DNA from: Thermoplasmata archaeon
GTDB lineage: Archaea; Thermoplasmatota; Thermoplasmata; RBG-16-68-12; JAJISG01
Length of the DNA: 64,000 nt
NCBI GenBank assembly: GCA_046759185.1
Contig: JBHIBO010000002.1
Span: 16,986-80,985, forward strand
Reading direction: 5' to 3'
Shown here: one piece after another, positions 16,550 through 21,406 of the stretch
How the letters are laid out: every line of letters begins with the position of its first letter
Position numbering within the stretch: position 1 is the first letter of the stretch
Made by a program: the position numbers and the translations under genes
Notes under the pieces: generated by a model
Seen by the model: the letters and a program-made list of their open reading frames with translations, nothing else
What the model was told of the DNA's origin: nothing
Databases searched by the model: none

Positions 16550-17713
16550 GTGGCCAAATCCCCCTCCCTCCTCCTCTACGACGAGGGGTACCTGGACTAC
16601 AACTTCGGACCGGCGCACCCCTTCCAGCAGGGCCGCGTCAAACTCGCCCGGGAACTCATCGACGGGGTGGGTCTCCTGGGACATCCGATGGCCCGGGAGG
16701 AGGCGGCCCTCCCCGCTTCCGAGGCACACCTCTTGCTCGCCCACGCCCCGGAGTACCTCGAGGTCGTGCAGCAGGCCGGCGAGAATCCCGCGACGGCGGG
16801 GATGCGCTACCTCGACTACGGCCTCGGGAGCGCCGACAACCCCATCTTCCCTCGCATGTACGAGGCCGCTGCCCTCCCCACAGGAGGTACCCTCGCTGCC
16901 GTCGACGCCGTGCGCCGGGGCGAGGCCCACAACGCCTTCAACCTCGGCGGCGGCTTTCACCACGCCCATCGCGCCCGGGCGTCGGGGTTCTGCATCTTCA
17001 ACGACCTCTCGGTGGCCATCCACCACCTCCTCCAGGAGGGCGTCTCACGGATCCTCTACCTCGACGTCGACGCCCACCACGGGGACGGGGTCCAATACGC
17101 CTTCTACGAGGACCCGCGGGTCCTGACCATCTCGCTCCACGAGGACGGTCGATACCTCTTCCCTGGGACGGGCTCTATCGACGAGGTGGGGGAGGGGGAG
17201 GGTGAGGGATACAGCGTCAACGTGCCCCTGCCCCCGCGGACCGGGGACGAGGCTTACCTCGATGCCTTCCGCGCCGTGGTGCCTCCCCTGGTCGAGGCCT
17301 TCGCGCCTGACCTCATCCTCAACCAGTTCGGGATTGACACCTACGTCACCGATCCCCTGACGCACCTCGGCCTCGGCACGTCCGCCCATCGGGCCATCGC
17401 CCAAGAGGCCCGGGCTCTCGCGGATCGGGTGTGTGGGGGACGATGGGTGGTGACGGGGGGCGGCGGCTACGAGCCCTCGGCCGTCGCGCGTGCATGGGCC
17501 CTCGTCTACGGGGTGATGCTCGGCGCCGGGATGGAGGACGCCATCCCCGAAGACGTGGCTTCGCTCCACCGCACCCTCTTTGGCGGCGACCTCGGGACAG
17601 GGGGCTTGGTCGACGATCCCCAACCCTCGACCCCCGCGGCCGAACGGGCCTTGGAAGGGGTCCTCGATCGGGTGAAAGCAACGGTGTTCCCCTTCCACGG
17701 ATTGGAGTCCTAG
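16550..17713 (+). CDS. acuC: Zn-dependent lysine deacetylase, AcuC/HDAC family
   Basis: HPF, GGFHHA, GFCIFND, DVDAHHGDG, SLHE, DPL, GGGGY. Confidence 0.92.
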   Translation: MAKSPSLLLYDEGYLDYNFGPAHPFQQGRVKLARELIDGVGLLGHPMAREEAALPASEAHLLLAHAPEYLEVVQQAGENPATAGMRYLDYGLGSADNPIFPRMYEAAALPTGGTLAAVDAVRRGEAHNAFNLGGGFHHAHRARASGFCIFNDLSVAIHHLLQEGVSRILYLDVDAHHGDGVQYAFYEDPRVLTISLHEDGRYLFPGTGSIDEVGEGEGEGYSVNVPLPPRTGDEAYLDAFRAVVPPLVEAFAPDLILNQFGIDTYVTDPLTHLGLGTSAHRAIAQEARALADRVCGGRWVVTGGGGYEPSAVARAWALVYGVMLGAGMEDAIPEDVASLHRTLFGGDLGTGGLVDDPQPSTPAAERALEGVLDRVKATVFPFHGLES

Positions 17714-18010: not shown

Positions 18011-19606
18011 ATGGAACGAAAGCGCAAGAAGGACGAGGGCGAGGCGGAGAAGGAGCAATCCGAGAAGGTCGCGGATAAGCGAGCGGCGAAGATTCGGGAG
18101 GAGATGGAGGACCGCCTCGAGCGGCTGCGCTACCAGTACGAGCGCGAGCTCAACAACTTCCGCTACGAGATCCAGGAGCGGGATTACCGGCTGAAGGCCT
18201 ACGAGGACAAGTTCAACAAGATCAAGGAGCCGCCCCTCCTCTACGCCTACGTCGTCCGCAAGGGCGGCGAGGACCTCTCGGGGAACCAGGTCGTCGTGGC
18301 CCGGGCCAGCGAGATGCTGAAGGTCTCCGTGGGTTTCATCGACAAGGACGGCCTCGACATCGGCCAGTACGTCTGGGTTCACCCCCAGACCTACGCCATC
18401 GTGGAGGAGAGCCAGGAGGTCCACAAGGGCATCGTCGGCAAGGTCCAGGAGGTCCAAGAGACCAACCTCGTGGTCTCCATGGAGGGGGACCTGGAGAAGC
18501 GGATCATCAAGTGCGACGTCGAGACCGCGAAGACCATCAAACCGGGCTACCAAGTCTCCATCCTTCCACCGACCATGGAGATCCTCCAGGTCATGCCGGA
18601 CGCGGAGGTCAAGAGCCTCCTCTTGGGTGAGAAGCCCAACGTCACCTACGACCGGATTGGTGGGCTGGACGAGGCCATCGAGCGGATCAAGGACGTCGTT
18701 GTCCTTCCCTTCCAGGAGAAGAAGCTCTTCAAGAAGATCGACCTCAAGGCGCCCCGCGGCATCCTCCTCTACGGCCCGCCGGGCTGCGGCAAGACCCTCC
18801 TGGTCCGGGCCATCGCCACGGAGAACAACATGACGTTCTTCAACATCAGCGTGGCGGACATCCTCTCCAAATGGGTGGGCGAGAGTGAGCGGATCACCAA
18901 GGAGATCTTCCGACAGGCCCGGGATAAGAAGCCGAGCATCGTCTTCTTCGACGAGATTGAGGCCCTCTTCACCACCCGGGGCCTCTTGGACACCTCCGGC
19001 GTCCACAAGAACATCATCGCCCAGATCCTGTCGGAGATGGACGGCCTCATCGAGATGGAGGACGTCTTCGTTATCGGGGCCACGAACCGGCCCGACCTCC
19101 TCGACCCGGCCCTTATGCGGCCAGGGCGGTTCGACGAGATCATCGAGATCCCACGACCCGAACGGGACGCGGGGGAGATGATCCTGAGGATCTACCTGAA
19201 GAAGGGCCTCCCCATCGAGAAATCCTTCGTCGACAAGCACGGGGGCTACGACGAGGCCCACCAGAAGCTGCTGTTCTACGTCCTCGAGGAGCTCTACGCC
19301 CAGGACCGCTGGGTGAAGATGAAGGTGGACGCCGAGGCGAAAGAGTCCGTGAAGACCGTCAAACGACGGGACATCGTCTCGGGCGCCATCATCGAGGCCA
19401 TCGTGAAGACCGCGAAGAAGAACTTCGTGAAACGGGCCATCGAGATGCCGGCCAAGAAGCGAAGCGCGGCCGGCCTCTCCAAGGAAGACCTTCGCCTCGC
19501 TATCGAGGAGGAGTGCAAGGAACACGCCATCACGGAGATCTACATCTACGAGAAGCGGCAGCGCGAGGTCCGGCGGCAGAACGGCACCGACCCCATGGTC
19601 GGGTAG
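18011..19606 (+). CDS. arc: ARC/Mpa-type proteasomal AAA+ ATPase
   Basis: N-terminal coiled coil ending KIKEPP, two OB-like repeats, EKPNVTYDRIGGL, Walker A GPPGCGKT, Walker B IVFFDE, SRH TNRPDLLDPALMRPGRFD, and an Mpa-like C-terminal region (YLKKGLPI...ELYA...DIVSGAIIEAIVKTAKK); GGTGA RBS. Confidence 0.85.
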   Translation: MERKRKKDEGEAEKEQSEKVADKRAAKIREEMEDRLERLRYQYERELNNFRYEIQERDYRLKAYEDKFNKIKEPPLLYAYVVRKGGEDLSGNQVVVARASEMLKVSVGFIDKDGLDIGQYVWVHPQTYAIVEESQEVHKGIVGKVQEVQETNLVVSMEGDLEKRIIKCDVETAKTIKPGYQVSILPPTMEILQVMPDAEVKSLLLGEKPNVTYDRIGGLDEAIERIKDVVVLPFQEKKLFKKIDLKAPRGILLYGPPGCGKTLLVRAIATENNMTFFNISVADILSKWVGESERITKEIFRQARDKKPSIVFFDEIEALFTTRGLLDTSGVHKNIIAQILSEMDGLIEMEDVFVIGATNRPDLLDPALMRPGRFDEIIEIPRPERDAGEMILRIYLKKGLPIEKSFVDKHGGYDEAHQKLLFYVLEELYAQDRWVKMKVDAEAKESVKTVKRRDIVSGAIIEAIVKTAKKNFVKRAIEMPAKKRSAAGLSKEDLRLAIEEECKEHAITEIYIYEKRQREVRRQNGTDPMVG

Positions 19607-19615
19607 GAGAACGGA

Positions 19616-20911
19616 ATGCGGCCCCGGATCCAGGGAACGGAACACGAATACACGTTCTATTCGCGCAAGATGAGCCAGATGGGGGTCGATCCCCATATCC
19701 TCGGACTCGACTTGCTGAAGGAGAGCGACCTCCACAGCGCCGGCGAGTGGACCCAGAACGGGTCGCGCGCCTACTACGACGTCGGCCATCTGGAGATCTC
19801 CACCGCCGAGACCACCAACGCCCGGGACGTCGTCGTCTGGGAGAAGGCCGGGGAGAAGATCGTGGACTGGCTCCGGAAGATGGTGGAGGAAAAGTACCTC
19901 GGGCCTGACGTGAAGCTCTGGGCGTTCAAGAACAACACCTCCCCCGACGGGACCTCTTACGGGAGTCACGAGAACTACTGCGTGTCCCGGGACCTCGTCT
20001 TCCCCGAGGCCTTCGCCCGGGAGCTCGTGCCCCACCTGGTGACTCGGTTCACCTACACCGGGGCGGGGGACCTCATCGACCGGAAGTACGTCTTGTCCCC
20101 CATGGCCTATCTGACCTCGTCCTTGGTCAGCGGGGAGACGATGCACTCCACGGGCGTGCTGAACACCCGGGACGAGCCCCATGCGCTGCCCCAGCGATGG
20201 CGTCGGCTCCACCTCCTCGTGGGGGATGCCCTGATGAACGAGACGGCCATCCTTCTGCGCCACTTCACCACCTCCGCCATCCTCGACCTCATGGAGGACG
20301 AGGCCCTGGGGGACGTGCCCCGCCTGGAAGATCCCGTGAAGGACATGTGGCACAACGTGGAGCACATGAACCCGGAGAAGTGGAGGATGACCCTCAAGGA
20401 CGGCTCCCAGGTCTCCCCACTGGATATCCAGCGCTACTACCTGGCGAAGGTGGAGGAGGTTGTGGAGACCGACGAGGAACGGCGGACCCTGCGCCTGTGG
20501 GAGGAGGTCTTGGGTGACCTTGAAGCCCGCAAGTCCAAGGAGCTCGCCTCTAAGGTAGAGTGGCTCGACCGCTACTTCGCCATCGAAGAGGCGGCGGAGG
20601 AGAAGCGCGCCTTCGAGGTGGAGATGATGGCGTGTAAGCAGTACTCCGAGGTCGGCCAGGATCGGGGCCTCTATTACAGCCGGCAAGAGCAGGGGTTGCT
20701 GGATCGAGTCGCTACCGATGAGGAGATTCTGGAGGCGGTGTACGAGCCCCCCACTAACACCCGCGCGGCCCTGCGCCGCCGCCTTTGTGACGAGTACAAG
20801 GTCGTAGCCATCGACTGGTCCTACGTCGTCGTCGACGACGGAGGGCGAAAACGGATCAACCTACCCGACCCGTATGAAACCGAGCTGGAGGAATTGCTTG
20901 TCCCAGCGTGA
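19616..20911 (+). CDS. PafA/Dop family (Pup ligase/deamidase) protein
   Basis: RIQGTEHEY, NGSRAYYDVGHLEISTAE, FKNNT..GTSYGSHENY, NTRDEPHA, RRLHLLVGDA, PPTNTRA, DWS. Confidence 0.93.
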   Translation: MRPRIQGTEHEYTFYSRKMSQMGVDPHILGLDLLKESDLHSAGEWTQNGSRAYYDVGHLEISTAETTNARDVVVWEKAGEKIVDWLRKMVEEKYLGPDVKLWAFKNNTSPDGTSYGSHENYCVSRDLVFPEAFARELVPHLVTRFTYTGAGDLIDRKYVLSPMAYLTSSLVSGETMHSTGVLNTRDEPHALPQRWRRLHLLVGDALMNETAILLRHFTTSAILDLMEDEALGDVPRLEDPVKDMWHNVEHMNPEKWRMTLKDGSQVSPLDIQRYYLAKVEEVVETDEERRTLRLWEEVLGDLEARKSKELASKVEWLDRYFAIEEAAEEKRAFEVEMMACKQYSEVGQDRGLYYSRQEQGLLDRVATDEEILEAVYEPPTNTRAALRRRLCDEYKVVAIDWSYVVVDDGGRKRINLPDPYETELEELLVPA

Positions 20912-21074
20912 AGAAAGACCCCAGAAGAAGAAAAAGAAGAAGGAAGTCAAGGTCGAGTTCGAGGCCGGGAAGGTCTTCAAGCCCAGCGAGGCGAAGGATC
21001 AGGACTTCGAGCTGGACCTGGACTCGGCGAAATTTCAAGCGAGAAAGGGAGAAGGAGGCGACCGGCGAACCTAG
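20898..21074 (+). CDS. Putative Pup/UBact-like small modifier protein (58 aa)
   Basis: TTG start behind GGAGGA, overlapping the pafA/dop 3' end; highly charged and probably disordered; near-terminal FQARKGE aligns with Pup (Y/F)VQKGG(E/Q) and UBact YRQR(S/T)G(E/Q), followed by GGDRRT. Confidence 0.65.
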   Translation: MSQREERPQKKKKKKEVKVEFEAGKVFKPSEAKDQDFELDLDSAKFQARKGEGGDRRT

Positions 21075-21138: not shown

Positions 21139-21240
21139 ATGCTTTCTCTTGACTATCTAGCTGGGTTCATTGACAGCGGACGGAGACGCCGAGATTACAT
21201 GACCGCCGGGGACGAGCCCCCCATCCGAAATCGGTTCTGA
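21139..21240 (+). pseudogene. Degenerate LAGLIDADG homing endonuclease fragment
   Basis: ATG 21139 reads MLSLDYLAGFID; removing one base (~21175) continues ADGDAEIT; region is more AT-rich than its flanks. Confidence 0.5.
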
Positions 21241-21406
21241 ATTTCAAAAAACGCTCTACCGAAGAACGAGAGGACTCAACGCTCGGGGGAGTAAGGCCCT
21301 GGGCGGTTAGAGGTGTCACAGCACTGTGCCTCACCCTCCGTGCCCCTTCAATCGTGCCGCCAAATCTTTATTGCTCAGCCTCTCCCTTGAAACCCGAGGC
21401 AGGCTC

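Follow-up and report, generated by a model that had tools for sequence, protein, structure and literature searches.

A tag-like small protein with an internal Gly-Glu motif encoded beside a single PafA/Dop-family enzyme in a Thermoplasmata archaeon

We analyzed a stretch of 64,000 nucleotides (the window) from contig JBHIBO010000002.1 of the Thermoplasmata archaeon assembly GCA_046759185.1, in which a small open reading frame (ORF) lies directly behind a gene for an enzyme of the PafA/Dop family, here called PafL. The host is archaeal and has only one PafA/Dop-type enzyme; this main point was missed by the initial annotation, which had been made from the sequence of the window. The small ORF is real, is under purifying selection, and stands far above chance. 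With a probability of roughly 0.4, we favor the reading that its product is a largely unstructured Pup-like tag of an archaeal counterpart of pupylation, which would be joined to other proteins through an internal Glu or Gln. The evidence partly supports the view of the module as a new form of pupylation in archaea that involves a single enzyme and a new family of tags, whose attachment motif never stands at the terminus.

The small ORF and its conservation

The product of the small ORF reads LSQREERPQKKKKKKEVKVEFEAGKVFKPSEAKDQDFELDLDSAKFQARKGEGGDRRT (coordinates of all features are listed in Table 1). The start of the ORF shares 14 nucleotides with the end of the PafL gene. A mechanical ORF list had put the start at an upstream ATG at position 20874, which would give 66 amino acids. 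We place it at 20898 because the homologous start codons in related loci support this position, with ATG in 23 of 28 loci and TTG in the five loci of the window's genus; the upstream ATG is absent from three of these five. Within the product, F46 is encoded at 21033-21035, G51 at 21048-21050, E52 (GAA) at 21051-21053, and G53 (GGA) at 21054-21056. The sequence of the 58-codon ORF and its coordinates, including those of E52 and G53, are as the initial annotation had given them.

Besides the window's own locus, 29 loci of the order were fetched, of which 28 had enough downstream DNA. The tag ORF followed in frame directly behind the enzyme gene in all 28. At the 29th locus (L026), 53 bases are left downstream, and the cut start of the ORF, with the first 20 residues of the tag, is visible in them. 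Compared with the window over the last 40 codons of the tag, the ratio of the proportions of nonsynonymous and synonymous differences (pN/pS) was 0.18 at the median of 28 pairs and did not exceed 0.33. A word-indexed search for the tag family yielded 93 clusters at the level of 90% identity. When 1.84 billion representatives were searched with a full profile, 93 clusters at the 50% identity level were retrieved, of which 42 had E <= 1e-10. Identical or near-identical proteins are publicly annotated as 'hypothetical protein'.

Conservation centers on the C-proximal part of the protein. The motif [F/Y/W]-x-A-x-[K/T]-G-[E/Q]-G-G-D-R occurs in all 93 close clusters, and the tail GGDR[R/K]x that follows the E/Q is kept in the same 93 clusters and in the 28 loci. 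Exactly six residues stand behind the E/Q in 92 of the 93 clusters, the remaining one being a read-through of 18. The initial annotation had suggested collecting small ORFs behind homologous enzyme genes; neither the ORF nor its motif was lost in the 28 loci, and the tail was retained throughout. Among 92 distant cluster representatives, 85 contain aromatic-x4-G-[E/Q]-x-G. The position directly after the E/Q (+1) is G in 43, A in 39, S in two, and N in one of these 85; +2 is always G; +3 is D in 42, T in 21, N in 11, S in nine, and G in two; and +4 is R in 84. The distant clusters continue for 6 to 77 residues beyond the E/Q (median 13), corresponding to 2 to 73 beyond the core Arg. The seven representatives without the motif comprise P0100, P0132, three proteins that look truncated or frame-shifted, one that is cut short, and one unrelated repeat protein. 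Across the family, G51, G54, and R56 show little or no variation. Ligation through a trimmed di-glycine, which the initial annotation had offered as trimming to GG or GGD, is weakened because +1 is divided between G and A as given above; neither a di-glycine end nor the Asp is conserved family-wide. Ligation through Asp55 was rejected, with D at this position in 42 of the 85 distant clusters.

Residue 52 is E in 81 and Q in 12 of the 93 close clusters, and E in 25 and Q in 60 of the 85 distant ones. A switch between E and Q was seen even between clusters that are 97% identical (P0002). Other classes of the phylum have a Q-only form of the tag, ...DFDLDLDAAKFQGKKGQAGTRTKAxx. The sole conserved carboxylate or carboxamide of the tag lies within G-[E/Q]-[G/A]-G-x-R, at least six residues from the end, and we infer that E/Q52 is the attachment residue. 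None of 185 tag-family proteins ends in G[E/Q]; at least six residues always follow the E/Q. Four distant clusters (P0113, P0117, P0128, and P0171) have Cys-rich tails after the G-[E/Q]-x-G-x-R core, which could bind zinc.

The remainder of the tag has a basic N-terminus with a median of eight Lys and Arg among the first 25 residues (135 tag-family proteins). This basic N-terminus, whose poly-Lys stretch the initial annotation had called atypical for Pup, is a real and family-wide property. F27, at the end of the block E20-F27, is nearly invariant across the family. A structure model of the tag alone was mostly irregular, with two short helices and a predicted template modeling score of 0.23, and a search of the ESM Atlas gave no usable match.

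The comparison with Pup gave a divided picture. Membership in the Pup or UBact sequence families, as implied by the initial annotation, was not supported: the tag ORF had no match in Pfam or NCBIfam at E <= 10, the close-tag profile retrieved no Pup chain from the PDB (the best match was unrelated, with E 1.1), and hhalign assigned a probability below 1% to either tag alignment against 19 Pups. The register, in turn, was confirmed for Pup. Bacterial Pup ORFs show [F/Y]-[V/I]-Q-[K/R]-G-G-[E/Q], with the aromatic residue six places before the terminal E/Q, which matches the spacing from F46 to E52. As in Pup, G-[E/Q] is at the heart of the most conserved motif of the tag, and its second residue is E or Q only in the 93 close and 85 distant clusters. 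Beside bacterial homologues of the enzyme, we found 50 distinct small ORFs ending in Q[K/R]GG[E/Q] or VEGE, which are no count of Pup endings because they were picked by that ending. A Pup-like ORF at a Syntrophaceae locus (L127:2546-2746) has KKKKVK near its N-terminus and ends in FRQVEGE; a basic N-terminus is thus not unique to the archaeal tags.

The enzyme and the ATPase

The initial annotation had taken the small ORF for the partner of a PafA/Dop-family enzyme and an ARC-like ATPase. Profile searches bore this out, with 298 bits for PafL on PF03136 and TIGR03689 as the best model for the ATPase. The enzyme is present in 43 of 61 genomes of the order, and the arrangement AAA ATPase, PafL, tag gene is kept in all ten extended loci of the order. 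At loci of other classes, the enzyme gene is immediately upstream of the tag gene in 13 of 21 cases, and the ATPase gene is often not adjacent; in one family, the enzyme gene is located away from the tag gene, on the same or another contig. Among 401 genomes, an even sample of the phylum, 22 had a tag gene, 22 had an enzyme gene, and 21 had both, a co-occurrence that is not a statistical test because the genomes are related to each other. The exceptions were G188 (locus L065), with a tag gene and an enzyme fragment at a contig end, and G183, a genome of 75% completeness in which an enzyme fragment likewise lies at a contig end. Tag and enzyme matches are spread over nine families of the phylum, including that of the window.

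PafL is publicly annotated as 'proteasome accessory factor PafA2 family protein' and is encoded by the single PF03136/Pup_ligase gene in the window's genome. Each of the genomes that have the enzyme shows one copy, those of the clade with all-Q tags included; two enzyme matches in genome G173 are fragments. PafL scored 261.4 bits on the PafA model TIGR03686 (cut-off 551.3) and 243.6 bits on the Dop model TIGR03688 (cut-off 492.3). Six archaeal members reached 223-262 bits on both models, far below both cut-offs, and twenty bacterial proteins were cleanly split by the same NCBI models into 12 Dop and 8 PafA. Against solved structures, PafL scored higher with Dop (189 and 185 bits) than with PafA (153 and 150 bits). 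The Dop-loop of about 40 residues is, according to the available part of PMC8599861, found in all Dop and in no PafA. It is absent from PafL, which has about 40 residues fewer than Dop before residue 39. In a tree built from 16 archaeal sequences together with 12 of Dop and 8 of PafA, each group fell on one side of a branch (support 100/100, 98/98, and 95/90). The archaeal clade split off at 100/100 on a long branch; because the tree is unrooted, it yields no order of events. Judged by sequence, the archaeal enzymes form a third clade in addition to those of PafA and Dop. An archaeal-type enzyme (53% identical) was also seen at a contig start of a record titled 'Proteobacteria bacterium' (L085), the label or binning of which may be wrong.

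The motifs GTEHEY, SHENY, TRDEPH, and RRLH as well as D55 were invariant in 16 archaeal enzyme sequences, and the archaeal enzyme is apparently catalytically active. One position differs. In the PafA-Pup structure, as described in the accessible text of PMC8599861, Pup has a poorly ordered C-terminus that forms only a weak salt bridge, to R201 of Corynebacterium glutamicum PafA. Profile alignment placed R201 of PafA and R221 of Dop opposite T179-G180 of the archaeal enzyme. All 17 distinct bacterial contexts have Arg at the R201-equivalent position, and all 17 archaeal contexts have Thr-Gly there, which suggests that the handling of the tag's end has changed in the archaeal enzyme. Predictions of a complex of enzyme, ATP, Mg, and tag (alignments A3 and A1) gave run scores of 0.01, 0.73, and 0.00; as no control folds were run, they count neither way.

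The ATPase scored 340.6 bits on the Mpa/ARC model over residues 54-505, which include the N-terminal domains (cut-off 504.75), and 273.5 bits on the PAN model, over the AAA core only. In the window, its C-terminus (19592-19606) reads DPMVG. Of 13 related loci, 11 share this ending and two, which belong to other classes, have GVEVM instead. DPMVG is a possible new docking motif. The host genome (1.8 Mb, 95.8% complete) encodes in addition a true PAN (559.8 bits), which ends in GTMFA, and two Cdc48-type ATPases. Three proteasome-subunit matches were detected, none of them near the tag gene, and PF05639 (Pup) had no match anywhere in the genome.

Internal attachment and its alternatives

According to the reading that we favor, the enzyme would convert the side chain of E52 into a γ-glutamyl phosphate, which would then be attacked by a lysine of the target protein. 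With the Glu forms of the tag, ATP would be used, as in PafA. With the Gln forms, an enzyme-bound phosphate would be used, as in the Dop reaction; this intermediate has been trapped in Dop (PMC8599861, available part). One enzyme would serve both forms. The glycines flanking E52 would allow the side chain to loop into the pocket, and the tail Gly-Gly-Asp-Arg-Arg-x would stay on the tag. The tagged protein would be handed to the ATPase of the operon and then, perhaps, to the 20S proteasome.

The closest competitor is a pro-form, in which a protease (a housekeeping protease, the proteasome, or the PafA/Dop-type enzyme itself) would remove the tail and expose E/Q52 for ligation of the bacterial type. 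We regard this as unlikely, although it has several points in its favor. The known Pups all end in G[E/Q], so far as the accessible part of PMC2588565 covers them, and the aromatic-x4-G-[E/Q] register is that of real Pups. The distal tails, of 6-77 residues, differ from each other in length and sequence, as they do in precursors of ubiquitin-like proteins, and the conserved [G/A]-G-x-R after the E/Q might form the primed side of a protease site. We nevertheless favor retention of the tail, because the neighborhood of the module contains no conserved protease gene (10 loci of the order and 6 annotated loci of other classes), because the Arg that meets the free C-terminus of Pup in PafA has been replaced by Thr-Gly in all archaeal enzymes examined, and because no lineage has shed the tail. 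The tail is lost in none of the 185 proteins, although its loss would be harmless if it were merely removed. The Cys-rich tails of the four distant clusters look functional and argue in the same direction. A far less probable explanation is an artefact, either a chance frame or a tail created by stop-loss or by a sequencing error at 21054. What speaks for it is that the ORF is short, that it starts with TTG, and that GGA is one substitution away from TGA, for which reason the initial annotation had listed such an event and had named a TGA in the reads as the sign of it. Contigs of three public runs cover the tag ORF at a depth of 37-43 and keep the GGA unchanged; this DNA may itself stem from runs X1 and X2, and rare variants do not show in contigs. 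The one difference inside the ORF was a synonymous change from CAA to CAG at 21038 in run X3. Because these contigs keep the GGA and none of the 28 loci or 93 close clusters lacks the tail, we reject stop-loss and base error; the median pN/pS of 0.18 likewise speaks against an artefact.

The small protein might also not be a conjugated tag at all and instead be a cofactor, a regulator, an adaptor, a dedicated substrate (for example, one that is amidated or deamidated at E/Q52), or a peptide precursor. This appears somewhat less probable still than a pro-form. It keeps weight because the tag lacks homology to Pup and the enzyme clade, on its long branch, is equally far from ligase and depupylase. 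At loci of other classes, moreover, the ATPase gene is often not adjacent, and a small winged-helix regulator gene is located upstream instead. On the other side, this gene order and co-occurrence are also the defining features of Pup in bacteria, and the basic disordered N-terminus, the acidic block, and the C-proximal G-[E/Q] repeat the layout of Pup. An ARC-like ATPase on top of PAN and Cdc48 also fits the role of a tag receptor.

Several observations weigh against internal attachment. We know of no PafA-family enzyme that has been shown experimentally to use an internal Glu. No profile test revealed sequence homology between the tag and Pup, and the tails vary freely beyond +6, which resembles the discarded pro-peptides of ubiquitin-like proteins. 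P0100 has a Pro at the place of the E/Q, and P0132 lacks the preceding Gly. The argument from R201 stands on a sequence alignment and the description in one paper (PMC8599861). Furthermore, the ATPase ends without an HbYX or GxYx docking motif in the window and the 13 related loci, and the proteasome genes are unlinked to the tag module; delivery to the 20S proteasome is therefore unproven. A fuller scheme that extends internal attachment is tentative, and we consider it rather doubtful as a whole. It describes a one-enzyme archaeal pupylation-like system in which an acyl phosphate would form on an internal Glu by use of ATP, or on an internal Gln by use of bound phosphate, and be transferred to protein lysines, giving branched conjugates that carry the tail. 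The ARC-like ATPase would feed them to the proteasome, the Arg at +4 of the tag would replace the lost Arg of the enzyme in trans, and the archaeal clade could be similar to an ancestor that had not yet divided into PafA and Dop.

Known systems and neighboring genes

Like the Pup/PafA/Dop/Mpa system of Actinobacteria, the archaeal module combines a small disordered protein encoded beside a PafA/Dop-family gene with an ARC-like ATPase nearby. The available text of PMC2588565 likewise reports that bacterial Pup genes adjoin a PafA-family gene. The tag further resembles Pup in the aromatic residue six places before an alternating G-[E/Q], the acidic helix-prone block ahead of it, and the basic low-complexity N-terminus. 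Unlike the Pup systems, the host is archaeal, there is one enzyme instead of two, and the tag has no profile-level similarity to Pup. Its E/Q is never terminal but is followed by [G/A]-G-x-R and at least two more residues. The enzyme has Thr-Gly at the place of R201/R221, the proteasome genes are unlinked, and the ATPase ends in DPMVG rather than GxYx.

UBact is a family of Pup-like tags outside Actinobacteria, in some Gram-negative phyla, and is encoded in PafA/Dop loci. UBact proteins end in G[E/Q], are bacterial, and occur with both enzymes. Closer in enzyme number is the single-copy PafA/Dop homologue of some Planctomycetes, which serves as the outgroup in the published PafA/Dop tree. It is likewise one enzyme related to both families and encoded at a locus unlinked to proteasome genes (PMC7947786 and PMC2588565, in their accessible parts). 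By its description, this system is set apart as bacterial, with trans-membrane inserts in the ligases and with Pups that end in G[E/Q] (Iyer et al., PMC2588565, available part). Precursors of ubiquitin, SAMP, and other ubiquitin-like proteins also carry a variable C-terminal extension after a conserved motif. These proteins have a β-grasp fold and are activated at a terminal Gly by E1-type enzymes. In contrast, the archaeal enzyme has a glutamine-synthetase fold, and di-glycine is not conserved family-wide in the tag.

Full-text literature searches, with incomplete coverage and without supplements, retrieved no paper on an archaeal PafA/Dop-type enzyme or an archaeal Pup-like tag. The reviews and family surveys searched treat pupylation as a bacterial invention and credit archaea with SAMP/ubiquitin-type tags only. 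In the accessible text of a 2025 minireview (PMC12288473), archaea are named once, in the introduction, with regard to proteasome components. The available part of PMC6466877 speaks of actinobacteria, and that of PMC7947786 deals with bacterial phyla only, the word archaea being absent from it. With a conserved and selected one-enzyme Pup-like module in many archaea, archaeal proteostasis would gain a second way of tagging proteins. The single archaeal enzyme would also provide a natural test of the idea of a bifunctional PafA/Dop ancestor, as put forward in the accessible part of PMC7947786. If an internal Glu or Gln is indeed used, the enzyme fold can ligate from within a chain, a wider range of conjugates would have to be looked for in proteomes, and the enzyme could be a useful ligation tool.

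Table 1. Features of the tag locus in the window and winged-helix genes at related loci (L numbers; positions within the respective locus)
Feature	Position	Strand	Remarks
Histone-deacetylase-family gene	16550-17713	+	upstream of the ATPase gene
ARC/Mpa-like AAA ATPase gene	18011-19606	+	531 amino acids; coiled-coil-like N-terminal stretch, conserved C-terminal DPMVG
PafL gene (PafA/Dop family)	19616-20911	+	431 amino acids; PF03136 Pup_ligase, 298 bits
Tag-like gene	20898-21074	+	58 codons; TTG start, TAG stop at 21072-21074
Lysine run K10-K15	20925-20942	+	part of the basic N-terminus kept family-wide
Block EFEAGKVF (E20-F27)	20955-20978	+	invariant in close alignment A1
Acidic block DFELDLD (D36-D42)	21003-21023	+	of the tag
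Core motif F46-x4-G51-E52-G53-G54-D55-R56	21033-21065	+	E52, predicted attachment residue
Tail GGDRRT	21054-21071	+	six residues after E52
Remnant of a double-LAGLIDADG homing-endonuclease-like gene	21139-21243	+	34 codons (MLSLDYLAGFIDSG...); just after the tag gene
Winged-helix gene	L161:7184-7513		
Winged-helix gene	L162:7425-7766		
Winged-helix gene	L164:7024-7374		
Winged-helix gene	L166:9451-9798	-	
Winged-helix gene	L167:6109-6429		

A histone-deacetylase-family gene lies within 3.3 kb upstream in eight of ten loci of the order and in none of eight loci of other classes. It sits by genes for acetyl-CoA synthetase, the usual partner of this family, and it may serve these adjacent enzymes; a role in removing the tag from lysines is speculation. 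At loci of other classes, a winged-helix gene (MarR/TrmB/IclR-like, about 110 amino acids) is found directly upstream of the enzyme gene in five of six annotated loci, and these genes recall the regulator genes beside pafA in actinobacteria. Finally, a LAGLIDADG motif is encoded downstream of the tag gene in 18 of 30 fetched loci of the order. The window's own locus fails the pattern used and carries the remnant listed in Table 1, of which an intact relative of 310 amino acids with PF00961 and PF14528 is encoded at L019:3014-3946.

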